From an uncultured Candidatus Saccharibacteria bacterium (GTDB taxonomy: Bacteria > Patescibacteriota > Minisyncoccia > Phycocordibacterales > CSBR16-119): a DNA stretch of 63,818 nt. Positions 6,900 to 37,435 of this stretch are shown here, piece after piece (the stretch's first letter is position 1; every line of letters starts with the position of its first letter). Position numbers and translations under genes: made by a program. Where the stretch lies: assembly GCA_964581035.1 (NCBI GenBank), contig CAZOLO010000004.1, forward strand, positions 1-63,818, given 5' to 3'. The notes under the pieces are model-generated. The model searched no databases and was not told the DNA's origin. It saw nothing but the letters and a program-made list of their open reading frames with translations.

Positions 6900-6905
6900 C
6901 TTATT

Positions 6906-9057: not shown

Positions 9058-9063
9058 TTTGAT

Positions 9064-9843: not shown

Positions 9844-9866
9844 AATATGAAATTTTTTAAAAAAAT

Positions 9867-11861: not shown

Positions 11862-11906
11862 AATGTTTTTTTGTCAAGGAGGACAATACTCTTAATTTTT
11901 GGTAGG

Positions 11907-17158: not shown

Positions 17159-17195
17159 GCCTCTGACTAAATTAAAAACTAGAAATATTTAAATT

Positions 17196-18056: not shown

Positions 18057-18066
18057 CCAATAAAAA

Positions 18067-19698: not shown

Positions 19699-19700
19699 AT

Positions 19701-20426: not shown

Positions 20427-21293
20427 AAATCTTCGAGGTTTTATACTAAGATCTTTTTCTAGGTTAGGGCTCATTAAATCTTTTTTGCAAACAAACCTTT
20501 GTAATTGGTCGGGGGTACCTATGTTAAAAAATCTACTTAGAAAAATAAGTGGTATTTTAATAAATAGAAATGGGATTGGTAGAAGAAGCCTACTTTTATT
20601 TTCATTTTTGCACATACGAACGAGGACCTCTTTCAATTTCAAGTTTTCTGGTCCACAGACTGTGTAGGTTTTATTATATGTTTTAGGATTTTCTATTGTA
20701 TTAACTATTATTCTTAACACATCTTCTTTGTGTATAGGGGCCAGATTATTATTTAATTTGGCTGGGTAGGGGATTATAAAGCTTCTTTTAATCAGTTTCT
20801 GCAAACTATTCAATCCTTCCTTTCCTATAAAGTTTTCTTCATAAACTTCTCCAACTCTTAGTATTGTGTGGTTTATTCCATATTTTTTGATTGCCTCTTC
20901 AGCTATTTTCTTAGATTCACCATATGACCCACAGCAAGAACCAATAGCTCTTGTACTTATAAATATAAAGTGATATACCCCAGCACTTTTCCCAAAATTT
21001 ATAAGCCTTTGTGTTCCAATATTATTAATTCTTGTATAATTTTGTGGGTCTTTTGAGTGGGTTATTGCAGCAAGGTGTAAAATTATATCGATTTTAGGGA
21101 TTTCTTTTTCCCAAATTTCAGGCTCTTCAATAGATCCATTTACTATGTTGATGCCTCTCGTGTCTATATCTATACTATTTTTATGGATCAGTAAAAAAAT
21201 TTCATAGGTCTCTCTGATCATGTTAGTCAGATCTCTTCCTAGGAAGCTCGAGGCTCCAGTTATTAGTATCTTTTTTTTAGTTAATTCTGTCAT
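20412..21293 (-). CDS. NAD-dependent epimerase/dehydratase family SDR
   Basis: ILITGASSFLGRDL Rossmann motif; YGESKKIAE (YxxxK). ATGA coupling with the upstream GT2 gene. Confidence 0.8.
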   Translation of the reverse strand: MTELTKKKILITGASSFLGRDLTNMIRETYEIFLLIHKNSIDIDTRGINIVNGSIEEPEIWEKEIPKIDIILHLAAITHSKDPQNYTRINNIGTQRLINFGKSAGVYHFIFISTRAIGSCCGSYGESKKIAEEAIKKYGINHTILRVGEVYEENFIGKEGLNSLQKLIKRSFIIPYPAKLNNNLAPIHKEDVLRIIVNTIENPKTYNKTYTVCGPENLKLKEVLVRMCKNENKSRLLLPIPFLFIKIPLIFLSRFFNIGTPDQLQRFVCKKDLMSPNLEKDLSIKPRRFLPFS

Positions 21294-22015
21294 TTTTTAA
21301 ACTCCTTTAATCTTGATATTATTATGTTTTTGATAAATTCAAGATTGGTCTTAAATGTTATAGAAGAAGAGTAATCTTTATTTTTATAGAAACAAGTTTC
21401 TACTTCACCTATTTTGAATTTGTACCTCCTGGCTTTGATCATTATTTCACTATCAATAAACCAATCATCAGATTCTAAATGAAGTTTTTCGAATGCCTCT
21501 TTTGTAAATATCTTTGGTTTGCCATTGATGTCCCCTGCCACTATTCCAGGAAAAATTAGATTCATAATTGCGTTAAATATTCTTGATATAATCTTTCTAT
21601 AAAATCCATCTTCTCTAGATACTCTTTTTGTTTTACATAAGTCTAATTTTTCATTAATTAATTTTAGATAAACAAGAGGTATATCTTTTGCGGGCATCTG
21701 ACCGTCTCCATCAATTACACATATAGTTTTACCTTTAGCTAATCTAAGACCTGATCTCATGTCCCAACCCATGGCTTGTTTACTGTCTGTTTTTTCTTCT
21801 ATAATAGATAAAGTGTTAGGATTATTTTCTGATATTTTTTTAACTACTATTGGAGTGATATCGCCACTTTCTGGTCTGTAATTCCCAACAATTATTATCT
21901 CGTAACTTAGATTTTTTTCTTCCAGAGCATTTACAACCTTTTTGTGGAAGGAAAATAAAGAATCACCAGCTTTGTAGCCTAAGATTACAACTGAGATGTC
22001 TTTTTGTTTTTCCAT
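21290..22015 (-). CDS. GT2 glycosyltransferase, soluble polyprenyl-phosphate sugar synthase-like (ArnC/DPM1-like)
   Basis: ISVVILGYKAGDSL, IIIVGNY and VIDGDGQMPAKDI motifs. Start set to the ATG at 22015 (MEKQKDISVV). Confidence 0.75.
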   Translation of the reverse strand: MEKQKDISVVILGYKAGDSLFSFHKKVVNALEEKNLSYEIIIVGNYRPESGDITPIVVKKISENNPNTLSIIEEKTDSKQAMGWDMRSGLRLAKGKTICVIDGDGQMPAKDIPLVYLKLINEKLDLCKTKRVSREDGFYRKIISRIFNAIMNLIFPGIVAGDINGKPKIFTKEAFEKLHLESDDWFIDSEIMIKARRYKFKIGEVETCFYKNKDYSSSITFKTNLEFIKNIIISRLKEFKK

Positions 22016-22069
22016 GAAGATTGATATGTGTCCAACTTGTCTAGGCATTATACTACAATACCAAACTCT

Positions 22070-22102
22070 ATCAATTACTTTGATAAATATACGTGGTATA
22101 AT
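22070..22102 (+). promoter_or_regulatory. Candidate promoter with extended -10 (TGgTATAAT) ending 6 nt before the ATG at 22109, implying a leaderless mRNA
   Basis: TTACTT, 16-nt spacer, TATAAT, gccgac, ATG, all read from the sequence. Confidence 0.3.
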
Positions 22103-22108
22103 GCCGAC

Positions 22109-22456
22109 ATGAAAATACTTTTATTGATAATTGCTTATCTTATTTTCAACACTGCTGGTCTATCTCTTTTGAAGATGAGCACTCTTAACCTAAAGCTGGC
22201 TTCATATTCAGATTATTTAGAACTATTTACTAAACCAGAATTTATATTAGGTTTTCTATTGTATGCAGCAAGTTTTCTTGCTTGGGTTGTCATGCTTAGC
22301 AAAAAAGACATTTCATACATATATCCTATTGTAATTGGTTTGAGTTATATCGTCATTATGATTACAGCAATTATTCTCTTTAGAGATAGCTTTACCTTGA
22401 ACAAGGCTTTAGGTTCGACTCTTATTGGATTAGGTGTTATTTTTATATCTTTATAA
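22109..22456 (+). CDS. Small 4-TM membrane protein (115 aa), SMR/EamA-like, ArnE/ArnF-type candidate flippase
   Basis: Four hydrophobic helices. C-terminal ...FRDSFTLNKALGSTLIGLGVIFISL resembles SMR/DMT small transporters. Lies between a polyprenyl-P GT and a GT-C gene. Confidence 0.55.
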   Translation: MKILLLIIAYLIFNTAGLSLLKMSTLNLKLASYSDYLELFTKPEFILGFLLYAASFLAWVVMLSKKDISYIYPIVIGLSYIVIMITAIILFRDSFTLNKALGSTLIGLGVIFISL

Positions 22457-22457
22457 C

Positions 22458-23027
22458 ATGATAGGAAAAAATGTAAGAAAATCTTTATATATATTTTTAG
22501 GGGTAATTTTTGCTTTGACTATTTGGTCTTATGCGAATGGTTTTTTAAAATACTCTTTTTGGATTTCGTCTATGGATAAGGCAAAAATATGTTTAGCTTT
22601 TTTGGATAAAGATATGGTTGATTACTGTGACAGTGGCTTTTCAAAGATTATTAGAAAAATGCCAAATTCCATTAATGCTGAGTTCTTTTTGAATGACTTA
22701 GACTTTGCTATAGGTAGTGTAGATGATCTCTTTTTCTCAAAAGAAAAAGGACTTTTTGTGCAGGGTTGGGCAGCAAACCCATTTGGTAAAAAACCATTTG
22801 ATTATATTCTTGTCAGGACCATAGACAAAGAAGGGGTGGTGATATTTTCAATAAGCCCTTCTGATTATTCGCGTAAAGATGTCTCTGATTATTTAAATAA
22901 CAAAGACTATGATTTATATGGATGGTCTGTTTCTTTGAATATTGACTCTGAAAGAATGGAAGATTTTGATATAGAGATTTGGGGAATAGATACTTCTAAA
23001 TTTTCAGCCAACAGGCTGAGAATTTAG
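22458..23027 (+). CDS. Membrane-anchored hypothetical protein (189 aa, N-terminal TM helix)
   Basis: ORF with ATG at 22458, 1 nt after the upstream stop. TM helix SLYIFLGVIFALTIWSY. Confidence 0.55.
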   Translation: MIGKNVRKSLYIFLGVIFALTIWSYANGFLKYSFWISSMDKAKICLAFLDKDMVDYCDSGFSKIIRKMPNSINAEFFLNDLDFAIGSVDDLFFSKEKGLFVQGWAANPFGKKPFDYILVRTIDKEGVVIFSISPSDYSRKDVSDYLNNKDYDLYGWSVSLNIDSERMEDFDIEIWGIDTSKFSANRLRI

Positions 23028-23155
23028 ATTTTATATCTCTTGTGCCTTCCTGAATATCACAAGAGAAAGTCGCATTCAATTTTTATTGAAAGGTAAGTTG
23101 CTATTTAAAATAGAAATACTTTTGTAGTCACACCCTTAATTAGCCCTCAATAAAT

Positions 23156-24628
23156 TCAAAATTTATATACCCAGATATTTTCTCCTGATTCACTTTCTGA
23201 ATGATAAACTTCCCTTATCACTGGGTGATTAGAAATTAGCCCAAAAACATCTCCAAGCCGGCTTCCCGCAAGTTCATCTATTACTATGTATCCATGGTTC
23301 TCTCTTGTTATTTTAAATAAATCGTAGGATGTTTTAATAACTGGCGCGTTCGTGTAGAAATCATTATTTGATCCAGACGCCAAACTTGCCTCTGTAGGCT
23401 TGCCGGTAAGAGATATTGGCTGGAGCATCCCCGGGTCTCCAGTATAAATTTTTGTTAGATGTGCGTAAGGAGAAATAATCAAATCTCCTGTTTCTTTGTT
23501 TTCTAAAATATAGGAATAAGCCTTATTGAAGTCAGGTTGAGGTGATCCTTTTTTAAGAATAGAGTCTGATGTGTATTTTAATATTCCGCTGTAGAAAAAG
23601 AATCCTCCTATAAGGAAAAAAGCTAAGGGCCATAATACAAAAGAAATCTTTTCTTTTGTTATTTTGTTTAAAGCAAAAAAGGGTGTAAATGCTCCATAGG
23701 CTGATGTTATAACAAGAAACGGAAGAAGCGGTACAAGATACCGATAATGAAGAAGTGGCCCATAAGCAGTTATAATTATATAAGAGAAAAGAATAGAGCT
23801 AGAGAGAAGTGTTCCGGAGATCAGCTTCTTTTCTCTAAATAAAGCGACAGTGAAGCCAGTAATTGACAGAACTGACAGAATCATAAATTCATCAAAGAAG
23901 AATTTATTGTAATAGTCTAGAAAATTATAAATTACAAGATCTCTTAAATACGGCCAAGCAATAAAGTATCCTAATGCGAAAATTATAGGTATCAATAATA
24001 CATACTTCCAATTTATTTTCTTCATGTTTGTTAATAACCAGACACTAAGTGTGAACAAAAAACCAGGAAGGAAAACAAGAGCTAGTGCATGGGCAAAAAA
24101 AGCAAAAGCAAAAGTTATCGATGATATAAAGAACCTGTAAATTTTGTTAGTTTTTATAAAAATCAGAAACTGGTCAAAAGATAGAAGTAAAAAGAATTGC
24201 AAAATAGTATATCCTCTTGCTTGCCTTGACCATGCTATTTCCCAAGGTAAAAAAGCGATAGAGGCTGTCGCTGTTAGAGCAATCCAGTCATTATTAAATA
24301 GTCTTTTTGTGAATATAAAAGTTAACAGAATTGACAGGAGCCCAAAGAAGGCTGCAGGAACTCTGGTTGACCATGGGCTAAGCGGGTCAAATCCAAAAAG
24401 CTTCATTGACCCAGCTACGATATAAGATGTAAGAGGTTGATTCTTGTAGACATTTCCAGAATCTAATAGAGGATAACCATGATCTTGGATGGCCAGAGAA
24501 GCATTTATTGTATAACCTTCATCTATCCACAAAGACTGATATCCCAAGTTTTTGAAACGCAAAAAACCACCCAGTAGCAATATTACAATTAGAATTATTA
24601 AAATTTTCTTTTCAAGAGATTTGAACAT
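23156..24628 (-). CDS. GT-C fold glycosyltransferase (PMT_2/ArnT, GT39/GT83-like)
   Basis: 490 aa with ~11 TM helices. First-loop LWIDEGYTINASLAI (DE motif). C-terminal soluble domain. Confidence 0.85.
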   Translation of the reverse strand: MFKSLEKKILIILIVILLLGGFLRFKNLGYQSLWIDEGYTINASLAIQDHGYPLLDSGNVYKNQPLTSYIVAGSMKLFGFDPLSPWSTRVPAAFFGLLSILLTFIFTKRLFNNDWIALTATASIAFLPWEIAWSRQARGYTILQFFLLLSFDQFLIFIKTNKIYRFFISSITFAFAFFAHALALVFLPGFLFTLSVWLLTNMKKINWKYVLLIPIIFALGYFIAWPYLRDLVIYNFLDYYNKFFFDEFMILSVLSITGFTVALFREKKLISGTLLSSSILFSYIIITAYGPLLHYRYLVPLLPFLVITSAYGAFTPFFALNKITKEKISFVLWPLAFFLIGGFFFYSGILKYTSDSILKKGSPQPDFNKAYSYILENKETGDLIISPYAHLTKIYTGDPGMLQPISLTGKPTEASLASGSNNDFYTNAPVIKTSYDLFKITRENHGYIVIDELAGSRLGDVFGLISNHPVIREVYHSESESGENIWVYKF

Positions 24629-24657: not shown

Positions 24658-24884
24658 TATACTATACATGTGAAAAAACTAATTTCTCTCCTAAAAAAAC
24701 TAAAACGACATCTGCCAAAACTTGCAGTAATTATTGCTATTGCTGGACTATCTACAGCAGGTGTAACCTATGCCCAATTTGCTAGACAAACAGGTTCTAT
24801 CGGTTGGGGGTATGGTTATGGTTATGGATATGGTCTTGGTTATGGTTGGGATTCTGGTTTGAGTGCGGGGTATAGGAATGTGGT
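24658..24884 (+). repeat. Copy 1 of a 227-bp perfect direct repeat (12 nt upstream plus the first 72 codons of surface paralog 1)
   Basis: Identical base for base to 27255-27481 on by-eye comparison (offset 2597 nt). Confidence 0.9.
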
Positions 24885-27216
24885 GGAGGGAGATAGTGGT
24901 TGGGAATATGTTGGACTTAATCAATTTTCTACAAATGTAACTGCGTATCATACAATAGATTTTAATACTGAAGATGTTCCGTATGTTGCATATCTCCAAG
25001 GTGCCGGGACCGAGATTGTGGTCCAGTATTTTAATAGCGGAAGTTTGGCGTGGGTTGATTTACCTGATATAGAATTCACCACAACAGCTGACGCAGTTGC
25101 TTTTGCGATATTTGAAGACACTCCCTATATTGCTTACTCAGACGATGGTAATGGTGGTGGGTCTATAGTTGTTATGTCTTATGACGGTTCAGATTGGAAT
25201 CTAGTTGGTCCCGCATATTTTGTGGCGGGCCAAGTTGATAACATATCGTTGGCATTTGATTCCACAGGGGTTCCGTACGTTGCTTATCAAGATGAGCTAT
25301 TCAGTGATAAAACATCTGTGCAGAAGTTTGTGAGTGGAGCTTGGTATTATGTAGGATCAACGTTTATCTCTGGGCAGGCAGAATATCAAAGAATTGCATT
25401 GGATTCTAACGATGTTCCATACGTTGCTTACATTGATTATGATAATGGTCAGGAGGTGACAGTGAAAAAGTATAATGGTTCTTCCTGGGAAACAGTTGGC
25501 CTCACTGGTTTTACAGATACTTCTGTTGCGTACTTGGATCTAGTTATTGGTTCAGATAATCAGCCTTATGTTCTATATAATAATTTTATTAATGGAAGTC
25601 GTGCTGCTGTGATGAAGTATGACGGTTCTTCTTGGGGTTATGTTGGAGGAAATGGTTTTTCGCAGGTTAGCAGTAGTTATCACTCGCTTGCAATAGACTC
25701 AGATGATAATTTGTATGCAGCGTATAGCGACAGCCAGGAAAGCAATAGGATAAGCGTGATGAAGTATGATGGCTCATCATGGGATTATGTAGATGAGGCT
25801 GGTATCTCAGAAGGAAGTGCAACTTGGCCGTCTGTAAATATAAATTCTTCTAATGTTCCATATGTCTCATACGCAGATGATGCAGACTTAGCAGGGAAGA
25901 CGAGTGTTAAGACATACCTCACCACAGAATCTTCAACCCCAGGTAATCAATATGCCTACGGCTATGGCTACGGTTACATGAATCCAAGCTATATATCCAG
26001 CTCACAAATATCATGGGACTCATCTTTTGAAGCATATCGGATAACTTCTTCAGCTGTTGGTCAGCCAATCGTAAACGCTGGTATTCTCATTCCAAATACT
26101 TCAAACTCTGCTAGTTCTACATCGGCAGAATTTATGTTCAAAGTTACTGCCGCTTCAGATGGATTGCATGGCTTCTTATTAAATCAAGGAACAACGCTTG
26201 TAACAGGAGGGTCATTCGATCTCGCAGATCTAAGCTTTACAGATATTTCAAGTGCCTCTATCTCTGGGCAAGACTTCCTTGGAGGATTTAACTTTGGACT
26301 TTCTGAAGACATGACTTCAAGTGAATCAATTAATCTATATATTTACGTCGGCTCACAATACGATGGAGAAACTTTGAACGTATACCATCAATCTCCAAGT
26401 GATTTAGACTGGAGCCTTCTTACAACATGTGAGGTTGGGAACTCTGTTGCTGTTCCAAGTGGATATTGCTACTTTTCAGCTACCTCTTTCTCTTCCTTCG
26501 CCGCAACCACTCCAACAACCACAGAAGAAACCGGAGGTGGAAGTAATTCAGGAAGTGGCGGAGGAGGATATCCAGATGGCTACTTTGATGATGTGTCTGA
26601 TCCAAACACAGACCCTGCGCCCGAAGAAGAAACATCATCTACTCAAGAACCACAAACCTGTCTTCCATACATAAATTCATATATTAAGTTAAACACAAAC
26701 AACAACTCAGAAGATGTAACTAAACTTGAAACATTCCTAAACACTTACGAAGGAGAAAGTCTTTCAGTAAATGGTATTTATGAAATACCAGACTACCAAG
26801 CAGTAATCAGATTCCAAGAAAAATACTTTGATGAAGTTCTGACACCATGGGGATTTCTTACCAAAGGAACAGGTTATGTTCATAAAACAACTAAAGCTCA
26901 AATCAACAAGCTTCACTGTGAAAGCCAAGGTTTGACTTGGGAAGAAGATGTTTTCATTAACACAGAGACAATCATAAAAGACGTAGTACCTAAGAAGCCA
27001 AAAGTAAATGTAAAAGAGGAACCTAAACAAGTTGAAGAAATTAAAGAGCCTATTGCGATTGATGATCTTCCACTTATACAAGTAATTGAGAAAGAGCCAG
27101 AACCAGTCATACAGAAACCAGCACCTCAAACAGTCCAACCAGAACCAGTTAATCAATGCAACAAAGGTCGATTCCTTTGTTGGCTATGTAATATATTTAC
27201 AAGTCTTTTTAAGTAG
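24670..27216 (+). CDS. Large secreted/cell-surface protein, paralog 1 (848 aa)
   Basis: Domain order: signal/anchor, Gly-Tyr block, about seven propeller-like repeats, conserved C-module, Thr/Gly linker, PG_binding_1-like domain. GTG start. Signal-like LAVIIAIAGLSTAGVTYAQF, then QFARQTGSIGWGYGYGYGYGLGYGWDSGLSAGYR. Repeats of ~48 aa (..D.N.VPYVAY.D...G...TV.KY.GSSW..VG). YGYGYGYM, GGGGYPDGYFDDV. C-terminal EDVTKLETFLNTYEGESLSVNGIYEIPDYQAVIRFQEKY. Confidence 0.85.
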   Translation: MKKLISLLKKLKRHLPKLAVIIAIAGLSTAGVTYAQFARQTGSIGWGYGYGYGYGLGYGWDSGLSAGYRNVVEGDSGWEYVGLNQFSTNVTAYHTIDFNTEDVPYVAYLQGAGTEIVVQYFNSGSLAWVDLPDIEFTTTADAVAFAIFEDTPYIAYSDDGNGGGSIVVMSYDGSDWNLVGPAYFVAGQVDNISLAFDSTGVPYVAYQDELFSDKTSVQKFVSGAWYYVGSTFISGQAEYQRIALDSNDVPYVAYIDYDNGQEVTVKKYNGSSWETVGLTGFTDTSVAYLDLVIGSDNQPYVLYNNFINGSRAAVMKYDGSSWGYVGGNGFSQVSSSYHSLAIDSDDNLYAAYSDSQESNRISVMKYDGSSWDYVDEAGISEGSATWPSVNINSSNVPYVSYADDADLAGKTSVKTYLTTESSTPGNQYAYGYGYGYMNPSYISSSQISWDSSFEAYRITSSAVGQPIVNAGILIPNTSNSASSTSAEFMFKVTAASDGLHGFLLNQGTTLVTGGSFDLADLSFTDISSASISGQDFLGGFNFGLSEDMTSSESINLYIYVGSQYDGETLNVYHQSPSDLDWSLLTTCEVGNSVAVPSGYCYFSATSFSSFAATTPTTTEETGGGSNSGSGGGGYPDGYFDDVSDPNTDPAPEEETSSTQEPQTCLPYINSYIKLNTNNNSEDVTKLETFLNTYEGESLSVNGIYEIPDYQAVIRFQEKYFDEVLTPWGFLTKGTGYVHKTTKAQINKLHCESQGLTWEEDVFINTETIIKDVVPKKPKVNVKEEPKQVEEIKEPIAIDDLPLIQVIEKEPEPVIQKPAPQTVQPEPVNQCNKGRFLCWLCNIFTSLFK

Positions 27217-27224
27217 GGGTGTTT

Positions 27225-27252
27225 AAAAACCAGATTAATATCTGGTTTTTTT
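27225..27252 (+). terminator. Terminator after paralog 1 (AAAAACCAGA-loop-TCTGGTTTTTTT)
   Basis: Hairpin plus T-run. A near-identical hairpin follows paralog 3. Confidence 0.7.
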
Positions 27253-27254
27253 GA

Positions 27255-27481
27255 TATACTATACATGTGAAAAAACTAATTTCTCTCCTAAAAAAACTAA
27301 AACGACATCTGCCAAAACTTGCAGTAATTATTGCTATTGCTGGACTATCTACAGCAGGTGTAACCTATGCCCAATTTGCTAGACAAACAGGTTCTATCGG
27401 TTGGGGGTATGGTTATGGTTATGGATATGGTCTTGGTTATGGTTGGGATTCTGGTTTGAGTGCGGGGTATAGGAATGTGGT
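27255..27481 (+). repeat. Copy 2 of the 227-bp perfect direct repeat
   Basis: See 24658-24884. Confidence 0.9.
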
Positions 27482-29531
27482 TACCACAAGCGGTTCTTCA
27501 TCTTGGTCAAAACTTGAACAGGCAGAATTTACTGACGGGGCGGCAAAATATACAGATGTTGCAATTGCTCCAGACGGTACAACTTATATAGCTTACAGTG
27601 ACATGTCTTACACTGGTGCTTTGACTGTTGAGAAATATGTAAATGGCGCATGGACTTCGATAGGAACCGCAATTGCAGGAGGGGCCTCAATCTCCGAGAT
27701 TTCTATTGCGTTTAATAACTTTGGTACCCCTTACGTTTCTTTTAACAATGGTGGAGATTTAAGCGTCATGTACTACACCGGTGGAACTTCATGGAGTTAT
27801 GCTTCACCTTCAGATATTACTGGAGCAGCAACGGTGTATGTTTCAGATATGACTTTTGACAATACTAGTAATATGCCTAGTGTTGCATATAGAGACAGTA
27901 CTGGGGGGCTTTATGTCGCAACCTGGGATGGTGCTGGTGACTGGACTATTATTGGCGGAACATTTCTAACCGCTGATTCAAACAGCGACACTGTTAGTTT
28001 AGCTTTTGACTCAAATGACGTTCCTTATGTTGCTTATGCTGCCAGTCCATACGGTTATACCACTATTCAAAAATACTCAGAAGGATCTTGGTCTGTCGTT
28101 GGAGGGACATCTATCTCCGGATCTTATTCAACTTTTGTAGATCTTGTTATAGATTCAAATGATAATCTTTATATTGCTACTCATGATGGTGCGAGCGCTG
28201 TAGCAGTCTGGACTTCAACAGGAGGTTCCTGGGCTCGTATCTCTAGCCCGAGTACCTTTGATTCAAATACCCAGTATCCTTCTATTACAATTGATTATGA
28301 AGATAATGTTTATCTTGCCTACACTAATACAGCATTTCGTTTGTCAGTCCAAAAATACAGTGGCTCTGGAACAGATTGGGAGTATGTAGCCTCTAACATT
28401 TCAGCTCAACTACCTGACCATATCTCTCTTGCTGCTAGTCCAGATACAAGTAGTATTTATGTTGGATATCAGGACGGGGTACCTCTTGGCGGGGCTACTG
28501 TTCAAGTGTATGAGTCTACAGAGTCCACTTCTGACGCTTCTTCGTATCTTTATGGCTACGGCTACGGCTACATGAACCCAAACTCTACCTCTGGTACAGA
28601 AATATCATGGGATCCGTCTATCACCGCATTTCGCGTCTCTTCATCGGCGATAGGTCAACCAATTGTAGACGCTGGAATCCTTGTTCCAAATTCAAACGAT
28701 TCATCAAGTGCAACCTCTGCAGAATTTCTGTTTGACGTTGTTGCCCTATCAGATGATTTGAATAGCGCGGTTATTTTTGACGGTATAATTCTATCTGCCA
28801 GCAGCTCTTTCGATCTCGCAGATCTAAACTTTACGGACCTTTCAAGCGCCTCTATCTCTGGGCAAGATTTTCTTGGTGGTTTTAGTTTTGGAAATGCATC
28901 AGAGGATCTAACTTCTAATGAAGCCATCACTCTTTATCTAAACGTCGGCTCACAATATGACGGAGAAACTCTCAATGTTTACCATCTTTCACCAAGCGCT
29001 TCAGACTGGAGCATCCTTACAACATGTGAAGTCGGTCTAGAGACAAGCGGTTACTGTGTATTCACCGCAACCTCTTTCTCATCATTCGCCGCAACAACAT
29101 CAACAGCCACAGAAGAAACCGGGGGTGGTAGTGACTCAGGTAATAGCGGAAGTGGTGGAGGAGGATATCCAGATGGTTACTTTGATGATGTGGTTGATCA
29201 AAATACAGACCCTGCACCAACAGAAGAAATACCATATACTCAAGAACCTAACACAAACCCGGTAACCCCAACTTATTCAAACAATTCAAACACTGGAAAC
29301 ATTCAAACAACAGAAACTCCACAGATAGGAGTTAATTTCCCTGATGATTTAATTATCACTTCTACTTCAACAGAAGAAACATCAGATATTACAAATCCTT
29401 CACAAGATAAGGATGTTCAAATCAACAACAGTCAATGTGGAAAGTGGTGTTGGTTCTGGATTGGATGGGGAAGTGGAGCTGTATTTTGGTTGGTTGTTCA
29501 TCTTATTTTTGAAAGAAGGAGAAATTATTAA
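27267..29531 (+). CDS. Large cell-surface protein, paralog 2 (754 aa), same architecture with a C-terminal Trp-rich TM anchor
   Basis: First 72 aa are identical to paralog 1. Propeller-like repeats, YGYGYGYM, GGGGYPDGYFDDV. C-terminal WCWFWIGWGSGAVFWLVVHLIF-ERRRNY. Confidence 0.85.
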   Translation: MKKLISLLKKLKRHLPKLAVIIAIAGLSTAGVTYAQFARQTGSIGWGYGYGYGYGLGYGWDSGLSAGYRNVVTTSGSSSWSKLEQAEFTDGAAKYTDVAIAPDGTTYIAYSDMSYTGALTVEKYVNGAWTSIGTAIAGGASISEISIAFNNFGTPYVSFNNGGDLSVMYYTGGTSWSYASPSDITGAATVYVSDMTFDNTSNMPSVAYRDSTGGLYVATWDGAGDWTIIGGTFLTADSNSDTVSLAFDSNDVPYVAYAASPYGYTTIQKYSEGSWSVVGGTSISGSYSTFVDLVIDSNDNLYIATHDGASAVAVWTSTGGSWARISSPSTFDSNTQYPSITIDYEDNVYLAYTNTAFRLSVQKYSGSGTDWEYVASNISAQLPDHISLAASPDTSSIYVGYQDGVPLGGATVQVYESTESTSDASSYLYGYGYGYMNPNSTSGTEISWDPSITAFRVSSSAIGQPIVDAGILVPNSNDSSSATSAEFLFDVVALSDDLNSAVIFDGIILSASSSFDLADLNFTDLSSASISGQDFLGGFSFGNASEDLTSNEAITLYLNVGSQYDGETLNVYHLSPSASDWSILTTCEVGLETSGYCVFTATSFSSFAATTSTATEETGGGSDSGNSGSGGGGYPDGYFDDVVDQNTDPAPTEEIPYTQEPNTNPVTPTYSNNSNTGNIQTTETPQIGVNFPDDLIITSTSTEETSDITNPSQDKDVQINNSQCGKWCWFWIGWGSGAVFWLVVHLIFERRRNY

Positions 29532-29585
29532 AAGATTTCCCCGTTCTCGAAAACATATATTATTCATCTCTGGTAAAATATAATC

Positions 29586-32066
29586 ATGATTAAATTGAAT
29601 AATTTTTATTCAAAGCTAAAACCACTCATTCCAAAGATTGGTGTATTTTTGGCGGTCCTAACTCTGTCAATCTCAAGCATTGCCTACGCTCAATTCGCTA
29701 GACAAACTGGTTCTATTGGTTGGGGATATGGATATGGTTACGGATACGGACTTGGGTATGGTTGGGATTCTGGGCTGAGTGCGGGGTATAGGAGTGTGCC
29801 GAGTGCATGGTCTCTTACTGGAGAATCTGTTCTTGTTGGAATATTCCCAAGTAATGACACTTCTACGGCCGTAGCTACAGATGGCACTGTATATGTTGCT
29901 TACCCAAGCTCAATCACTGATGGTTATCGACCATTTCTGAAGAAATATTCAAATGGGTCTTGGTCAACAGTCGGTGGTACGTATCTTGCTAATACCAGCT
30001 CTGGTGTTCTTTCTCTTGCAATTTCACCCACAACAGATGTCCCCTATGTTGCTTTTGCTGATGGAGAGAATGGTAATAGGTTAACGGTCATGAAGTATGA
30101 GGATGATATTTGGTCAGTTGTTGGATCAGAACTTATATCTACCGGTAGCGCTAATGATATAGATCTACTTGTAGCTCCAAATGGAATACCTGCTGTTGCA
30201 TATTATGATGGCACCACAGATCGTGCTGCGGTGCAGTACTATTATGGAAGTTCATGGATTGATATCAGCCCAGGGGCTTCAGATGGAGGGATTTCAAAAA
30301 TATCAATATCTATAGACTCTGCTGGAGTACCTGTTTATATTTCGTATGTTGATACCTATAATGGATCAGGTATCACTGCAATGCAGTATAGTGGTTCTGG
30401 GTGGAGTGGTATGGGGGCAAGAAGTTTTACTTCTGGGGTTGCGTATGATGTATCAATGGCAGTTGATTCAAATAATGTTCCATATATTGCCTTTAAGGAT
30501 GATGCAGGTTACGCAAGTGTTGTGTCTTGGAATGGATCATCTTGGGTTAGTGTTGGCCCTGAATCATTCTCAGATGGACTGGCTGTGGAATTTAATCTTG
30601 CCATGGATTCAGATACTCCATATATTAGTTATATAGATTATGGAAATAATAGATATTTAACTGTTCAGAAATATATTAATGGATCTTGGCAAGATGTTGG
30701 GGATCCGGGTTTTGTTGAAGGAAGATATAGCTCTTTAGCAATAAGCCCTGGTGGGACACCTTACTTGGCATATCTTAGTCTAGAGAATGGAGGGATTGGG
30801 GTTCAAGAGTACTCTAGTGATTCTTCTGATGCATCATTAAATAGTTACGGCTATGGCTACGGCTACATGGTTGATTGGTATAGTAACGGATCAAGTATAT
30901 CCTGGGTTCCTGGAAGCAGTAGATACGAAGTATCTGGAGAAGACATGGGTGTATCAGTAGTTAGCGCAGGTCTCATGATCCCAAATACTTCAAGCATCGA
31001 AGCTGCAACAGCTATTAGCTTCCCATATCCTTTATATGTAGATATGGGTGATACAAATATCACAATTAATGCTGGAACTATAATGACGGCGGCAACTACA
31101 ACAAACTTCCTAACCATCGGAGGTGACGAGAGTGCCGATCTGACTAACCTTCCCTCTGATCAAACATCAGTAGCCTCTCTAGATTTTGGTCTTCCGTCGC
31201 TTGGTCTTACTATTTCACCAGCAGTTACTATTTCTCGAAATGTTGGATCTTCATACAACGGTGAGGAGCTAAATATATATCACCGTACACCAGGAGAAAG
31301 TACTTGGACTCTTCTTGGAACATGTACTGTAGCTTCTAGCATATGCTCTTTTACCACAACTCAACTTTCATCTTTTGCTGTAACTCAGACCACAACCACC
31401 ACAACATCAAGCTCTTCTAACGGAGGTTCTGGTGGAGGAGGATATCCAGATGGCTACTTTGATGATGTGGTTGAACCAAATAGCTCAGATAACACAAGCA
31501 ACAGCAACGGAAGTTCTTGCCAGCCGACAAATTACACATACACAAGAAATCTTAAGATTAATTATGTAGGTCAAGATGTTTTAGAATTGCAAAAGACTCT
31601 AAACAACAACGACTTTATTATCGGCACAACAGGAAATGGTTCTCCGGGAAATGAATCTACCTACTTTGGTCAGGCAACCGAGTACGCAGTTAAATCACTT
31701 CAATCATTTTACAATCTAGTTTCAGACGGAATAGTTGGTTCAGGTACAGGATCTGTTATTGAATCTCTAGCTAACTGCGAAAATGTTGTAATAGAAGATC
31801 AAGAGATAATCCCTGAAGTTCCACAAGACCAAGAGCTCGTAGCTACGAACCCAGATGAAATTCAAGAGGGTGGGGATGATGAATCATCTGTTCCTGTTAT
31901 CTCAGGTAGTGATAAAGACTATGAATATGAAAAGGTCTTTATTGATCCAATTAAAGAAAATCAAAAGGATAATAAAAACAAAAATAGAAACACACTATTC
32001 TTCTTTATAGGATTAATAGGAGCATCAATATCTCTTTTCTTGATTAGATCTCTAAAGAAAAAATAG
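29586..32066 (+). CDS. Large cell-surface protein, paralog 3 (826 aa), with PG_binding_1-like domain and C-terminal TM anchor
   Basis: Same QFARQTGSIGWGYGYGYGYGLGYGWDSGLSAGYR block, but encoded with many synonymous differences. Repeats present. GGGGYPDGYFDDV. VGQDVLELQKTLN...ATEYAVKSLQSFYNLVSDGIVGSGT. TM helix LFFFIGLIGASISLFLI-RSLKKK. Confidence 0.85.
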   Translation: MIKLNNFYSKLKPLIPKIGVFLAVLTLSISSIAYAQFARQTGSIGWGYGYGYGYGLGYGWDSGLSAGYRSVPSAWSLTGESVLVGIFPSNDTSTAVATDGTVYVAYPSSITDGYRPFLKKYSNGSWSTVGGTYLANTSSGVLSLAISPTTDVPYVAFADGENGNRLTVMKYEDDIWSVVGSELISTGSANDIDLLVAPNGIPAVAYYDGTTDRAAVQYYYGSSWIDISPGASDGGISKISISIDSAGVPVYISYVDTYNGSGITAMQYSGSGWSGMGARSFTSGVAYDVSMAVDSNNVPYIAFKDDAGYASVVSWNGSSWVSVGPESFSDGLAVEFNLAMDSDTPYISYIDYGNNRYLTVQKYINGSWQDVGDPGFVEGRYSSLAISPGGTPYLAYLSLENGGIGVQEYSSDSSDASLNSYGYGYGYMVDWYSNGSSISWVPGSSRYEVSGEDMGVSVVSAGLMIPNTSSIEAATAISFPYPLYVDMGDTNITINAGTIMTAATTTNFLTIGGDESADLTNLPSDQTSVASLDFGLPSLGLTISPAVTISRNVGSSYNGEELNIYHRTPGESTWTLLGTCTVASSICSFTTTQLSSFAVTQTTTTTTSSSSNGGSGGGGYPDGYFDDVVEPNSSDNTSNSNGSSCQPTNYTYTRNLKINYVGQDVLELQKTLNNNDFIIGTTGNGSPGNESTYFGQATEYAVKSLQSFYNLVSDGIVGSGTGSVIESLANCENVVIEDQEIIPEVPQDQELVATNPDEIQEGGDDESSVPVISGSDKDYEYEKVFIDPIKENQKDNKNKNRNTLFFFIGLIGASISLFLIRSLKKK

Positions 32067-32074
32067 TCTATATT

Positions 32075-32102
32075 AAAAAACCAGATAAAAGTCTGGTTTT
32101 TT
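32075..32102 (+). terminator. Terminator after paralog 3 (AAAAAACCAGA-loop-TCTGGTTTTTT)
   Basis: Hairpin plus T-run, related in sequence to 27225-27252. Confidence 0.7.
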
Positions 32103-32177
32103 AATATCTCTGGTAGATAGCCCTGCTATATGATTCAATTCCGTTTATTTGAAGGTTGTGGTAGTATTACTCTCATA

Positions 32178-33852: not shown

Positions 33853-36030
33853 ATGAGCGACAATAGTCTTAGTAAAGTTACATACATGGGCGAAGCAGAT
33901 TTCCGCAACAAGCGGACTCGTTTTGGTATAAAAAATATAGATCGTGCTAGGCACATGTATGTTATTGGAAAAACTGGTATGGGTAAATCTACTCTTTTGG
34001 AAAACATGGCCGCTCAGGATATTCAGAATGGAGCTGGGATTTGTTTTGTAGACCCCCACGGTTCCTCTGCAGAACTTCTTTTGGAATATGTTCCAGAAGA
34101 GAGAATTAGAGATGTTTTGTACTTTGCCCCCTTTGATACTGAGTACCCCATAGCCTTCAATCCACTAGAAGATGTAGATCCAGACAAGAGGCACTTGGTT
34201 GCCAGTGGGTTGATGTCAGCTTTCAAGAAGATTTGGGTTGACTCATTCTCTGCTCGTATGGAGTACATTCTTTCTAATACAATCCTTGGTCTTCTAGAGA
34301 CCCCTGGTTCTACTCTTCTATCTGTTAACAGAATGCTAGTAGAGAAGGAATTCAGAAAAACAATAGTCGATAATATTACCGATCCCACAGTAAAGGCCTT
34401 TTGGGTGGATGAATATGAAAAATGGGATGATAGATATCGAAAGGAGGCAGGGGCCTCAATTCAAAACAAAGTTGGTCAGTTCGTCTCAAATCCATTGATT
34501 AGAAATATTGTTGGTCAACCAAAATCTTCTTTTAATCTAAGAGATATGATGGACAACAAGAAGATAATTATTGTTAACCTTTCAAAGGGGCAAATTGGTG
34601 AAGAGAACGCCGGTCTTCTTGGTGGTATGTTTATTACAAACCTTTACCTTGCAGCCATGAGCCGTGCTGATCTTGATAGGGCTGAAATGGATGCACTTCC
34701 ACCATTTTATTTCTACGTTGATGAGTTTCAGTCTTTTGCCAATGAATCTTTTGCCGATATTCTTTCTGAAGCTAGAAAATATAAACTAGCTCTTACAATG
34801 GCGCACCAGTATGTAGCTCAGATGCCAGATGAGGTTCGAGAGGCTATATTTGGTAACGTAGGATCCATGGTTGTGTTTCGTGTTGGACCAGGAGATGCTG
34901 AACATTTTGCCAGAGAATTTGCACCAGTTTTTGTTGAGCAAGACATTGTAAATATTGGGCGCTTCCAATACTACCTTAGGCTAATGATTGATGGTATGGG
35001 GTCTAATCCATTTTCTGCTGTAGGATTTCCTCCTCTTGATAAGCCTGCTTCTTCAAACAAGAGAGCTGTGGTTGAGATGTCCAGAGATAGATTCTCAGCT
35101 AAAAGAGAAGATGTAAATAATAGAATTAATGAATGGTATATACCTATCCCCTCTGAGAAGGATAAAGAACACCAAGCATATATTGAAAAAAAGAAAAAGG
35201 AATTTGCTGCTCAAGGTAAAGAATGGGTAGATTTTTCAAAGGCTCCAGAAAAGAAAGAAGAGTATGAGAAGAAAAAATTTAGTAATGACTTTAAAAAACC
35301 CTATCAAAAGCCAGCAGAGAAGACTTTTGAAAAAAAGTTTGTAAAAAAAGATTTTAAGCCAAAACCTAAGGATGAGACTATTAATAAAAGTAGCTACAAA
35401 GAGGCATCTTTGTCACCAAAATTAATGGATCTGTTAGACGCCGTAGAAAGTGGAAATGCTAAACCTGTTCAAGATAATTCAGAGAATGGTTCTGAAAAAG
35501 ATAGTAAGGTTTCCTTATCTGAATTTAAAGCTAACCCACCCAAAAAAATCCTAGACAGAAAAGCTTCTACGGAGAAGGTTTCTTCTCTTAAGGAAGCTTT
35601 GATGAAGGCGGGTATCGCTAAAGATGATAAAGAGTCTAAGGTTGAAGAAAAATCAAAATCTGATGATAAAATTAAAGTTAATACACTTAAAAAACCGGAA
35701 GAAATAAAAGAGCCTAAGGCTGAGATTTTTAAGGAAAAGAAGGAAGGGAATAGAGTGTTCACACCATCTGCGATTTCAAGACCAAAAGAATCAAATGAAA
35801 GCAATATTAAGAAAGATATCTCTGTTGTAGAAAAAAAAGAAGACTTAGCGCTTAAAGAACCCATTACTTCAAAGCCTAAGAAAGACGAGGTTCTTATCAA
35901 TGCTCCTGAACCTCAGAAGGCCCCTGAGAAGAATTATGCTCCAGAAATAAGAGTGGAAGCACCTCCCGCGCCACCACAAACAGCAAAATTTTCTCCAGAT
36001 GAATTATTAGAAGCCATACTCAAGGATTAG
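33853..36030 (+). CDS. Soluble P-loop NTPase of the TraD/TraG/VirD4 (type IV coupling protein-like) family with a ~290-aa Lys/Glu-rich low-complexity tail
   Basis: Walker A VIGKTGMGKSTLL followed by CFVDPHG. Walker B/TraG-D_C-like FYFYVDEFQSFANESFADILSEARKYKLALTMAHQYVAQM. No N-terminal TM helices. Tail runs from about aa 430. Confidence 0.8.
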   Translation: MSDNSLSKVTYMGEADFRNKRTRFGIKNIDRARHMYVIGKTGMGKSTLLENMAAQDIQNGAGICFVDPHGSSAELLLEYVPEERIRDVLYFAPFDTEYPIAFNPLEDVDPDKRHLVASGLMSAFKKIWVDSFSARMEYILSNTILGLLETPGSTLLSVNRMLVEKEFRKTIVDNITDPTVKAFWVDEYEKWDDRYRKEAGASIQNKVGQFVSNPLIRNIVGQPKSSFNLRDMMDNKKIIIVNLSKGQIGEENAGLLGGMFITNLYLAAMSRADLDRAEMDALPPFYFYVDEFQSFANESFADILSEARKYKLALTMAHQYVAQMPDEVREAIFGNVGSMVVFRVGPGDAEHFAREFAPVFVEQDIVNIGRFQYYLRLMIDGMGSNPFSAVGFPPLDKPASSNKRAVVEMSRDRFSAKREDVNNRINEWYIPIPSEKDKEHQAYIEKKKKEFAAQGKEWVDFSKAPEKKEEYEKKKFSNDFKKPYQKPAEKTFEKKFVKKDFKPKPKDETINKSSYKEASLSPKLMDLLDAVESGNAKPVQDNSENGSEKDSKVSLSEFKANPPKKILDRKASTEKVSSLKEALMKAGIAKDDKESKVEEKSKSDDKIKVNTLKKPEEIKEPKAEIFKEKKEGNRVFTPSAISRPKESNESNIKKDISVVEKKEDLALKEPITSKPKKDEVLINAPEPQKAPEKNYAPEIRVEAPPAPPQTAKFSPDELLEAILKD

Positions 36031-36031
36031 C

Positions 36032-37435
36032 ATGAAGAGATTTATATTTATCATGTTTTTTGTGATACCGGCAACATCTTTTGCTTCTATCTCTATAAAT
36101 GAAGTAATGTATGACTTGGAGGGAACAGATTCAGATAGAGAATGGATAGAGTTAATGAATGCGGGAGCAGAATCTGTCAATTTGTCTAACTGGAAATTCT
36201 TTGAAAATAACTCCAATCATGGGCTATCTTTATATAGCGGAAATGAATCTATTGGTCCGGGAGAATTTGCAGTGATTGCCGACTCTCCAGAAACCTTTTT
36301 ATCTGATTGGCCAAGCTTCTCAGGGAATATGTTTGATAGTTCATGGTCTTCATTTTCTAATACGGGAGAGACTTTTTCAATCAAAAATGAGGACGGAGAC
36401 ATTGTGGATGAGTTTACATATACCCCTGAAGACGGGGCAAATGGTGACGGGAAATCACTTCAGTTAATAGAGGGTTCATTCTTGCCAGCTAGCCCAACTC
36501 CAGGTAGCGCTAACCAGATATCAGGTGAAGTTTTAGAATCTCTAGAAGAGGTTCAGATACCTGAAAATAGTTCATCTGAAAGCCCTGAAAAAAATATTAT
36601 AAAACAGAGCACCTTTGGAATACCACAGCGAGCTGTTGTCGGAGAGAGAATAGACTTTGAGCCTGAGATCTATGATGATAAAGGAGAACTTATTTTTAAA
36701 GCTAATTTGAATTGGAGTCTTGGAGATGGTGCGAGCAGGGAAGATGAATACAGAAAGAATTTTTCTCATACCTATAATTACCCCGGCACCTATGTAGTCT
36801 ACCTAGAGGTTTACACTACATCTCAAAGAAGAGAGCCGGAGCATGTTTATAGACAAACAATATCGGTTGTACCTGCTAGTGTCAGACTAACGCTTGTTGA
36901 TGGGGGTGTTGCTGTAAAAAATAAATCAGTATATGAATTAGATATAGGTGGTTGGAATTTTCTTTTTGATAAAAATAGTATATTCAGAATACCTCAGAAT
37001 ACAATTATTTTACCAGGTAAGGAGATTGTTTTCTCCGAGTCTATATTAAGTGAGAGTTCTATCGTGGAAGTATCTCTTATAAACGAAGTGGGTTCAGTGG
37101 TAGCTTCATTTGGTAAAAAGGTGGAATCACTTCCGGTTGTTAACGTAAAGCAAAAAGTCACACATATTCCAATTCCGATTACTACCACTCCAGCAGTAAA
37201 AATATCAAAAGATCAAGATAAAGATTCTGATCTAAAATTGGATGAAAGTCTGCAAGTTGCTAGTGCTAATAGAGCGTTACCTGATAATACTAAAAATAAT
37301 AACAGCTTATGGTTTTGGGTCTATGGAGTTTTAATAGCTGGAGTCATAGGCGGTGTAAGTTTTATCTATTTTAGAAATGAAGATGAATTCATAAATGAGG
37401 TAAATGATGTTGATGAGTATAGATTTGAAGAATAG
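36032..37435 (+). CDS. Secreted, C-terminally membrane-anchored protein with a lamin-tail domain (LTD) and a PKD-like domain
   Basis: Signal peptide. LTD motif ISINEVMYDLEGTDSDREWIELMNAGAESVNLSNWKF. PKD-like NWSLGDGAS...FSHTYNYPGTYVVYLEV. TM helix LWFWVYGVLIAGVIGGVSFIYF. The start is 1 nt after the upstream stop. Confidence 0.8.
   Translation: MKRFIFIMFFVIPATSFASISINEVMYDLEGTDSDREWIELMNAGAESVNLSNWKFFENNSNHGLSLYSGNESIGPGEFAVIADSPETFLSDWPSFSGNMFDSSWSSFSNTGETFSIKNEDGDIVDEFTYTPEDGANGDGKSLQLIEGSFLPASPTPGSANQISGEVLESLEEVQIPENSSSESPEKNIIKQSTFGIPQRAVVGERIDFEPEIYDDKGELIFKANLNWSLGDGASREDEYRKNFSHTYNYPGTYVVYLEVYTTSQRREPEHVYRQTISVVPASVRLTLVDGGVAVKNKSVYELDIGGWNFLFDKNSIFRIPQNTIILPGKEIVFSESILSESSIVEVSLINEVGSVVASFGKKVESLPVVNVKQKVTHIPIPITTTPAVKISKDQDKDSDLKLDESLQVASANRALPDNTKNNNSLWFWVYGVLIAGVIGGVSFIYFRNEDEFINEVNDVDEYRFEE

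Follow-up and report, generated by a model that had tools for sequence, protein, structure and literature searches.

Introduction

What are the three large paralogous proteins encoded in tandem on a contig from an uncultured Candidatus Saccharibacteria bacterium, and how would they work at the cell surface? The genes, called P1, P2 and P3 below, lie on the forward strand of contig CAZOLO010000004.1 (assembly GCA_964581035.1), the whole 63,818 nucleotides of which were analysed and are referred to as the window. An initial annotation described them as consecutive same-strand paralogs of 848, 754 and 826 residues with a single architecture, which is borne out by the open reading frames (ORFs) and by the alignment of their products. 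We propose that this triad represents three variants of one modular cell-surface protein in a wall-bearing, probably monoderm bacterium, with a probability of about 0.6. The best-supported reading is that of envelope-anchored adhesin-like proteins, in which a module resembling the autoproteolytic MAIN and GAIN-B domains may allow shedding under force.

A shared architecture with different anchors

The paralogy is clear. With P1 as a query, P2 and P3 are recovered with E-values of 5e-171 and 2e-100, and they are 51% and 35% identical to P1 in the three-way alignment. Three stretches are invariant in this alignment: residues Y34-R69 of P1 (YAQFARQTGSIGWGYGYGYGYGLGYGWDSGLSAGYR), which include a first Gly-Tyr block (GY1), residues 430-437 (YGYGYGYM), within a second block (GY2), and residues 630-642 (GGGGYPDGYFDDV), in a linker. 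The initial annotation had rightly singled out all three. Each protein begins with a Sec signal peptide made of a basic n-region, a hydrophobic h-region and an AxA motif at -3/-1, kept in 42 family members, and would be cleaved there by signal peptidase. The ending AYAQF first attributed to this N-terminus applies to P3 (AYA↓QF, the arrow marking a cleaved or predicted bond throughout); P1 and P2 read TYA↓QF.

The tails differ from one paralog to the next. The PG_binding_1 domain (PF01471) of P3 scores 40.8-46.2 bits for a cut-off of 23. The corresponding region of P1 stays below this cut-off (15.5 bits, E 0.02) and should be taken as a resemblance only; it is modelled by AlphaFold2 as three low-confidence helices, and its sequence resembles the tail of a relative, P0138. 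No PG_binding_1 match was obtained for P2 in Pfam. P1 ends with a Cys-rich hydrophobic tail of 13 residues, too short for a transmembrane (TM) helix. The early description of the tails is thus confirmed for the PG_binding_1 domain of P3 and for the TM anchors of P2 and P3, the PG_binding_1 domain of P1 being only sub-threshold. Relatives of the triad are anchored through PG_binding_1, SLH (P0156) or TM segments.

The linker following the C-terminal conserved module (C-module) contains 25-37% Ser and Thr, and its motif GGGGYPDGYFDDV is specific to the triad among all sequences fetched. A degenerate SLH remnant was considered for this motif and rejected: Pfam SLH gives no match at E ≤1, and the similarity is restricted to the short strings GYPDG.F and F.DV, to be compared with ASGYPDGTFKP in the Cohnella protein P0010.

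Sorting domains of Pfam and NCBIfam (LPXTG, PEP-CTERM, the C-terminal domain of the type IX secretion system (T9SS), prepilin and others) match neither end of P1-P3. Pfam, NCBIfam and PDB sequence searches with the full-length proteins did not provide a family for the C-module or for the Gly-Tyr blocks either. Evidence for the assignment to the envelope, already made at the outset, comes from the signal peptide, from the tails (PG_binding_1 and TM) and from the adjoining genes for glycan assembly and for a GT-C glycosyltransferase.

A widespread seven-bladed propeller

About seven repeats had been noticed between the two Gly-Tyr blocks and interpreted as a 7-bladed β-propeller, and structure prediction agrees. 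In the AlphaFold2 model of P1, computed from an alignment of 21 sequences of which three are GY sequences, residues ~75-420 form 28 strands arranged as seven 4-stranded blades, with a predicted local distance difference test score (pLDDT) above 90. The ring is closed by the N-terminal strand 77-80, which joins the last blade. The repeats are also visible in the DNA as an internal period of 144-147 nt (repeat family D2), and every paralog shows six C-D hairpins containing a W, together with a seventh blade.

Foldseek comparison with the PDB returns 7-bladed propellers at E ~1e-11 and ~12% identity, including LGI1 EPTP, PLL/PHL, CV39L, GH145 and PL25, the top ranks being held by lectins (Photorhabdus PLL/PHL; CV39L) and EPTP. 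In Pfam, only sub-threshold matches to Rax2 and Reg_prop are observed. Hundreds of homologs are matched, more than 100 of them aligning end to end over ~340 residues with 25-43% identity; many are T9SS-sorted proteins of Bacteroidota or SLH proteins of Paenibacillaceae, and others carry PG_binding_1 or a pilin-like N-terminus. Among surface proteins this propeller domain is widespread, and it is not lineage-specific. Since its fold neighbours are lectin-like and the same propeller occurs in many adhesin-like proteins, the modelled domain is most likely a ligand-binding one, with a glycan or the surface of a partner cell as the probable target.

The C-module resembles autoproteolytic sandwiches

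The initial annotation could not place the C-module in a known family. It is about 165 residues long and folds as a β-sandwich in the P1 model (pLDDT 85-95). A second AlphaFold2 model, computed for the minimal family member P0135 from a 28-sequence family alignment, gives a pLDDT of ~90 for the same module. The notable matches in the PDB (Foldseek) are restricted to the GAIN domain of BAI3 (4dlo_A) and to the ZU5 domain of ankyrin, the latter with a probability of 0.98-0.99 and a root-mean-square deviation (rmsd) of 5-6.5 Å over 155-175 columns.

The module ends with the motif W-x-(L)TTC-x6-C-x-F-x-TT-x-[L/F]-S-x-F-A, reminiscent of a GPS site. Among 75 representatives, both Cys are invariant, and the residues around the potential scissile bond are almost fixed: Leu or Phe at cleavage position P1 in 74, Ser at position P1′ in 70 and Phe at position P3′ in all 75 (these positions are always named as such here, to distinguish them from the proteins). 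The last two strands break precisely at this [L/F]↓S step in both AlphaFold2 models, the Ser being S608 in protein P1.

An exhaustive HMMER search of 50%-identity clusters with a five-sequence profile detected 621 relatives of the C-module at E ≤1e-3, and 417 at E ≤1e-10; a word-index search with a C-module profile had returned only two proteins. The module is usually found towards the C-terminus of long secreted proteins with several domains. The early proposal of a family specialised for this lineage does not hold for its main parts, which are widespread (C-module in 621 clusters, propeller in more than 100 end-to-end homologs). As a side observation, the C-module strand pair ...ynGqtLsVyrkepggssWsql... 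gives weak spurious hidden Markov model (HMM) matches to propeller blades (...NG.ASVMKFD.SSW..I), a common hairpin motif which can confuse profile searches.

A link with bacterial domains comes from P0010, which is a propeller homolog of P1. It contains a module ending with ...AEVDHF↓TKFAVL directly before its SLH repeats, which may be read from this end motif and position as a MAIN domain. The C-module HMM aligns in register to it through the cleavage motif, with E ~1e-3 among 116 sequences.

MAIN (Microbial Autoproteolysis INducing) domains are GAIN-B-like and widespread in bacteria and archaea (Brogan & Rudner, bioRxiv 10.64898/2026.05.12.724683, May 2026). According to this preprint, they cleave themselves at HX(S/T), for example HF↓S in Bacillus subtilis YfkN, and the resulting fragments stay non-covalently associated. 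HXS is among the most conserved MAIN positions, with the His acting as the base. About 15,000 MAIN proteins display the order signal peptide, adhesion or enzyme domains, MAIN, wall anchor; in the corresponding Pfam table, PG_binding_1 appears 3 times versus 15,669 for SLH. Patescibacteria are not mentioned in the main text of the preprint or in those of its supplement tables that were consulted. Its structure-based tables of MAIN-containing proteins list ZU5 and GPS/e4dloB6, which belong to one ECOD H-group, among the most frequent assignments (10.64898/2026.05.12.724683); these are the same two families as returned by the Foldseek search with the C-module. The triad displays the corresponding order of signal peptide, adhesion-type domain, sandwich and surface anchor. 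Fold matches, GPS-like end and position now fit the MAIN/GAIN-B/ZU5 autoproteolytic class, and the C-module quite probably belongs to the MAIN/GAIN-B class.

A model for tethering and shedding, and its weak points

A possible sequence of events would start with Sec export and with cleavage by signal peptidase I after AxA, generating the new N-terminus QFARQTG. The C-terminus would fix the protein to the envelope, through a PG_binding_1-type domain in P1 (weak), a TM helix in P2 and both in P3. Beyond this anchor and the Thr/Ser/Gly-rich linker would stand the MAIN/GAIN-B/ZU5-class sandwich, and further out the 7-bladed propeller as a putative ligand binder. By analogy with MAIN and GAIN, the sandwich might then undergo self-cleavage through an N-O acyl shift at [S/Q]-[F/L]↓S (F607↓S608 in P1). 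The cut ectodomain would be held by its last β-strand only, and would be shed under force. That the triad proteins cleave themselves is conceivable, with somewhat less than an even chance. A retained chemistry is argued from the near-invariant Ser at position P1′, and self-cleavage is the least certain step, since none of the three paralogs keeps the canonical catalytic His.

Several points weigh against this picture. The GAIN match is weak, with E 0.02, a probability of 0.69 and a poor superposition (rmsd 13.9 Å). Pfam GPS and GAIN are not matched by the C-module, a PDB profile search with it found nothing, and hhalign comparison with the P0010 module gives the same register with an E-value of only 0.073. 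The His of HX(S/T) is replaced by Ser in P1 and P2 (TSF↓SSFA) and by Gln in P3 (TQL↓SSFA); across the family this position is occupied by His in 22 of the 75 representatives, Ser in 21, Asn in 9, Thr in 7 and Gln in 6. In addition, the Gly-Tyr blocks are of low confidence in the AlphaFold2 model of P1 itself, and some propeller fold neighbours scoring equally well in Foldseek are enzymes (GH145, PL25, sialidases).

The replaced His leads directly to the strongest alternative, a MAIN-like fold without autoproteolysis. The sandwich would then be a rigid stalk, and the proteins permanently tethered adhesins. With the His of position P2 missing in the three paralogs and in 53/75 relatives, this has to be considered, and it is nevertheless rather unlikely. 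The conservation of the Ser, Phe and Leu/Phe residues counted above is indeed hard to explain for a purely structural strand, and other autoproteolytic folds dispense with a His at position P2: SEA cuts G↓SVVV, and FIIND cuts SF↓S. A second His is also to be weighed here, found in the VYH strand (...LNVYH..., H573 of P1, 26386-26388) of all three paralogs and of 15/74 relatives. It is weakly anticorrelated with the His of position P2 (both, VYH only, motif only and neither: 1/14/21/38; Fisher p = 0.03, uncorrected for phylogeny), with only one of the 15 VYH carriers having both and half of the family having neither. The VYH His may be a relocated catalytic base, or its distribution may be due to chance. 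A compensation for the loss of the motif His was not retained, given this weak anticorrelation and the half of the family devoid of both residues, and the VYH pattern is reported as an observation only.

An N-terminal Gly-Tyr module

The adhesin reading leaves the two Gly-Tyr blocks to be explained. After the signal peptide, the family shares the motif [QEH]F.R..G-x2-12-(G[YWF])n. In its extended form, GY1 consists of the AxA end of the Sec signal, [Q/E/H]-F-x-R-x-x-G, 2-12 residues, GW(GY)4-6 and G[FW]D.G..AGYR. The GY2 consensus, Y.YGYGYG[YF], is located 10-25 residues before the C-module. The module was found in ~35 metagenomic clusters, and each complete GY1 protein also has GY2 and a C-module. 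Members of the family were recovered from a protein database (P0121, P0122), one GTDB genome (L004), metagenomes (L005-L010) and ~33 further representatives obtained through the C-module search; a word-index search with the N-terminal 82 residues yielded two fragments only, one of them on a chimeric-looking contig. P0122, a 71-residue 'standalone' GY peptide (L001 3045-3260), is probably an artefact, its contig passing from low to high GC immediately after the GY repeat as in a chimeric assembly.

The segment between GY1 and GY2 is highly variable. It is reduced to ~25 residues in minimal members (L004 ORF 6001-7524, L010 ORF 80-1333, P0135). It consists of a PYVAY-type propeller in the triad, of a Reg_prop-type propeller in L005, L009, P0125, P0128, P0130 and P0133, and of several hundred residues without Pfam match in L010 ORF 1349-7186, P0153 and P0190. 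In the model of the minimal member P0135, FAR (43-45), GY1 (51-59) and GY2 (86-94) are β-strands with pLDDT 76-93, the value for the block formed by the QFARQTG-type motif and GY1 being ~87. In the simplest reading of these models, the Gly-Tyr blocks would form a Tyr-rich hairpin beside the sandwich, with variable domains inserted in its loop.

The module matches no Pfam or NCBIfam family and no sorting signal, and the papers retrieved for GYGYGYG deal with synthetic amyloid-forming peptides and eukaryotic Tyr-rich wall proteins, with none on bacterial surface proteins; on these three counts, the initial statement that the Gly-Tyr blocks match no named anchoring or sorting signal holds.

A more specific proposal is that signal peptide, QFxRxxG and GY1...GY2 form an unrecognised N-terminal module working with the MAIN-like sandwich, which appears doubtful. 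Through the Tyr-ladder hairpin, the mature N-terminus would be led back to the sandwich near the cell, and the two kinds of propellers and the Ig-like arrays would be swapped through the hairpin loop. By clamping or gating the tethered last strand, such a module could restrict cleavage or release of the His-less MAIN variant to certain conditions. Another possibility is that it presents a flat aromatic face, binding glycan chains or zipping molecules.

Paired GY blocks also occur in archaeal-looking relatives (P0172, P0194, P0217, P0218, P0237, P0263), within an N-terminal Ig-like domain. The same proteins have a MAIN-like module ending with T[Q/K]A↓SYF[A/V]A, followed by a TM-KKK tail in P0172 and P0237. 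Since these relatives carry both paired GY blocks and a MAIN-like end, the pairing seems to cross lineages and to be broader than the QFxRxxG signal. The Gly-Tyr module is compact, strongly conserved and unannotated; with its family and its position now defined, it becomes testable.

Glycosylation genes and the remaining alternatives

The triad is preceded by a glycan assembly cluster of ~20 kb (4928-24628), dependent on an ATP-binding cassette (ABC) transporter. It contains GT2, GT4 (glycosyltransferase families) and epimerase genes, further methyltransferases, a GT2-GT1 fusion and a 1154-residue methyltransferase-WbsX-GT2 protein. At its triad-proximal end (Table 1), the ArnC-like GT2, the ArnF-like subunit and the GT-C enzyme may constitute a three-part extracytoplasmic glycosylation set, judging from their sequences. 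The GT-C gene and P1 are divergently transcribed, their start codons lying 41 nt apart. Beside GY-family genes, full-length orthologs of GT-C (47% and 32% identity) have the same divergent placement in L005-L007 and L004/L008. In L011, other polytopic membrane proteins in a glycosyltransferase cluster are found at this position, and L009 has no GT-C neighbour. The cluster probably glycosylates the triad proteins or the wall polymer holding them.

This proximity gives some weight to the idea that the Gly-Tyr blocks, the Thr/Ser linker or both are acceptor sites of GT-C, the N-terminal module being mainly a glycosylation tag. Besides the gene position, conserved in two other lineages, and the adjoining ArnC-like and ArnF-like partners, a precedent exists in the tyrosine O-glycosylation of surface-layer (S-layer) proteins, known from Paenibacillus alvei and Thermoanaerobacter. 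The substrates of PMT-type enzymes are Ser/Thr residues and not Tyr, however, and the Gly-Tyr blocks are modelled by AlphaFold2 as ordered strands instead of a flexible acceptor loop. With, in addition, a family member devoid of a GT-C neighbour (L009) and a cluster that could equally build a wall polymer, such a tag is unlikely.

Still less likely are S-layer or lattice subunits, in which Gly-Tyr strands would zip molecules through cross-β or Tyr ladders, the array being glycosylated by the neighbouring cluster. In its gene order, the cluster resembles the S-layer glycosylation (slg) loci known from Geobacillus and Paenibacillus, where Wzm/Wzt is found with a multi-domain methyltransferase-glycosyltransferase and a transferase beside the structural gene. 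One GY-family member, P0156, carries SLH domains, and GYGYGYG peptides self-assemble into amyloid-like polar zippers (PMC8163036). Three divergent paralogs, TM anchors and adhesin-type propellers are nevertheless atypical of a lattice built from one abundant protein, none of the recognised domains is lattice-forming, and minimal family members lack any large domain. Finally, a propeller acting as a 7-bladed glycoside hydrolase or lyase, displayed and released for nutrient scavenging, is improbable: GH145, PL25 ulvan lyase, rhamnose-glucuronate lyase and sialidases do appear among the fold matches (E 1e-11 to 1e-9), and MAIN proteins often carry hydrolases, with nutrient scavenging proposed for many (10.64898/2026.05.12.724683), but identity to the fold-matched enzymes is ~10-12%, no Pfam catalytic family is matched, and the blades repeat a single motif almost identically, which is also the case in lectin-type propellers, in line with the top matches.

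Mosaic evolution and expression signals

If the triad is taken as a set of envelope-anchored adhesin-like proteins, its DNA gives hints about how the variants arose. P1 and P2 share a tract of 227 nt with 100% identity (24658-24884 versus 27255-27481), running from 12 nt upstream of the start to codon 72. Their DNA identity is 33-52% in the propellers and 57-86% in the C-modules. This contrast between an identical end and a divergent propeller suggests gene conversion at the gene ends, recent in P1/P2, and divergence in the middle. A 53-nt patch encompassing GGGGYPDGYFDDV (26556-26608, 29153-29205, 31430-31482; repeat family D6) is 89-94% identical in all three genes, within flanking DNA of 40-60% identity, and between P3 and P1/P2 it is more conserved in DNA than the GY1 block. 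This patch could be a conversion hotspot or have a nucleotide-level function.

A comparable pattern is seen elsewhere in the family. L005 1887-4331 and L009 7526-9859 have identical C-terminal halves and an identical downstream ribE, with different Reg_prop propellers and upstream genes. L006 (same gene as L005) and L009 come from one sample (contigs Ga0222670), and the pattern reflects either a cassette-like replacement of the N-terminal half between strains or an assembly artefact. In the triad, a chassis would be homogenised while the inserted binding domain varies, yielding three binding specificities on one chassis.

A TATACT box lies inside the 227-nt tract and ends 6 nt before the start codon; each triad gene may be served by a promoter of its own, the leader being very short or absent. 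P1 is followed by a hairpin and a T run (27225-27251: AAAAACCAGAT-TAAT-ATCTGGTTTTT), P3 by a 16-bp AT-rich stem and a T run (32070-32107), and both look like intrinsic terminators from their sequences. P1 may therefore be transcribed apart from P2 and P3.

Downstream genes

The GC content is 30-40% in the window which, together with the gene content, points to a probable genome of the CPR/Patescibacteria type. The genes downstream of the triad are of the housekeeping type: SpoU, MscS, a TraG/VirD4-like ATPase, a Lamin-tail-domain (LTD)-PKD protein, an extracytoplasmic function (ECF) sigma factor with DUF5667, YchF, LeuRS and MurJ. LeuRS (41848-44673) has a NUDIX domain inserted after its editing domain (residues 382-498, E 8e-14). 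At 33853-37435, a TraG/VirD4/TraD-like coupling ATPase, whose long tail is rich in Lys and Glu, precedes the secreted LTD-PKD protein, and the two could form a DNA-uptake or transfer pair. Among the other sources, the NCBI label 'Gammaproteobacteria' of L004 is doubtful in view of its low GC and its gene content.

Table 1. Positions in the window of the triad genes, their domains and the adjoining glycosylation genes (aa, residue numbers; Pn, protein concerned)
Feature	Position	Strand	Remarks
Wzm/Wzt ABC exporter	9064-11861		with Wzt_C domain
ArnC-like polyprenyl-phosphate GT2	21290-22048	-
ArnF-like small flippase subunit	22028-22456	+
GT-C membrane glycosyltransferase	23156-24628	-	Pfam PMT_2, NCBIfam Agl23-like
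P1 gene	24670-27216	+	848 aa, GTG start; signal peptide, GY1, propeller, GY2, MAIN-like module, linker, divergent PG_binding_1-like domain, short Cys-rich hydrophobic tail
P2 gene	27267-29531	+	754 aa, GTG start; same core as P1, without PG-binding domain, C-terminal TM anchor
P3 gene	29586-32066	+	826 aa, ATG start; same core as P1, PG_binding_1 domain and C-terminal TM anchor
Sec signal peptide	P1 24670-24774 (aa 1-35), P2 27267-27371, P3 29586-29690	+	predicted signal peptidase I site, P1 TYA↓QF
QFARQTG and GY1	P1 24775-24876 (aa 36-69), P2 27372-27473, P3 29691-29792	+	invariant in triad
Propeller	P1 24892-25929 (aa ~75-420), P2 27480-28526, P3 29799-30821	+	AlphaFold2, Foldseek, homolog alignment
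GY2, YAYGYGYGYM	P1 25951-25980 (aa 428-437), P2 28545-28574, P3 30840-30869	+
C-module, MAIN/GAIN-B/ZU5-like β-sandwich	P1 26008-26511 (aa 447-614), P2 28602-29099, P3 30897-31388	+
GPS-like site	P1 26485-26502 (aa 606-611), P2 29073-29090, P3 31362-31379	+	SF↓SSFA in P1 and P2, QL↓SSFA in P3
Linker motif GGGGYPDGYFDDV	P1 26557-26595, P2 29154-29192, P3 31431-31469	+
Divergent PG_binding_1-like three-helix region	P1 26695-26925 (aa ~676-752)	+
PG_binding_1 domain	P3 31569-31748 (aa 662-721)	+	Pfam E 2.6e-10 and 5.3e-12
C-terminal TM WCWFWIGWGSGAVFWLVVHLIF, then ERRR	P2 29445-29510 (aa 727-748)	+
C-terminal TM TLFFFIGLIGASISLFLI, then RSLKKK	P3 31992-32045 (aa 803-820)	+

Significance

If the C-module cleaves itself, the principle of force-releasable surface proteins, recently described for Bacillota, would extend to a poorly known and probably episymbiotic lineage, in whose lifestyle binding to partner cells and letting go of them is central. 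Natural variants devoid of the His would then also be at hand to establish the actual requirements of GAIN/MAIN chemistry. The triad itself offers a ready comparison, with three propellers and three anchoring modes on one chassis, and the GT-C gene found repeatedly next to family members suggests a candidate pair of enzyme and substrate in the glycosylation of proteins by these organisms.

Comparison with known systems

The sgsE-slg locus of Geobacillus stearothermophilus and the spaA-slg locus of Paenibacillus alvei likewise have a surface-protein gene by an ABC-dependent glycan cluster with a methyltransferase-glycosyltransferase. The transferase is here a PMT_2/Agl23-like GT-C and not a Wzy_C-type O-oligosaccharyltransferase, and the triad proteins have no similarity to SgsE or SpaA.

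The triad propeller has end-to-end homology, at 30-43% identity over ~340 residues, with the PYVAY...KY.GSSW..VG propellers of T9SS Bacteroidota and Paenibacillaceae SLH proteins (sub-threshold Rax2). Unlike these, it is inserted between two Gly-Tyr strands. The PLL/PHL lectins are 7-bladed structural neighbours with only ~12% identity.

The likeness of the C-module to ZU5 and ZU5-UPA (FIIND, PIDD) is limited to the fold, through the ankyrin ZU5 matches. The tripeptide of P1 and P2 recurs at the S-F↓S cleavage site of FIIND, but ZU5-UPA proteins are eukaryotic and cytoplasmic, and no UPA subdomain was recognised in the triad. The C-module also resembles GAIN/GPS (PDB 4dlo, 4dlq), 4dlo_A being its best Foldseek match. 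The GPS motif of adhesion G-protein-coupled receptors is C-x-C-x-H-L↓T-x-F-A, and the triad shares with it the W, the two Cys and the x-[L/F]↓[S/T]-x-F-A segment at the kink between the last two strands; it lacks the GAIN-A helical subdomain and the seven TM helices.

Among the closest known counterparts are the MAIN proteins such as YfkN, with which the triad has in common the domain order, probably the fold class, the hydrophobic-Ser/Thr-x-Phe-Ala strand break at the end of the sandwich and the large size of the surface proteins. It differs from them as follows: the catalytic His is absent from the triad and from most relatives; the anchors are PG_binding_1 or TM versus SLH or LPXTG; and the N-terminal QFxRxxG and GY1/GY2 module is undescribed in the MAIN preprint. 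The chassis resembles that of the recently described MAIN proteins, and what the triad adds to it is a His-less motif, other anchors, an N-terminal Gly-Tyr module and a probably CPR-like lineage of which that preprint makes no mention in the parts consulted.

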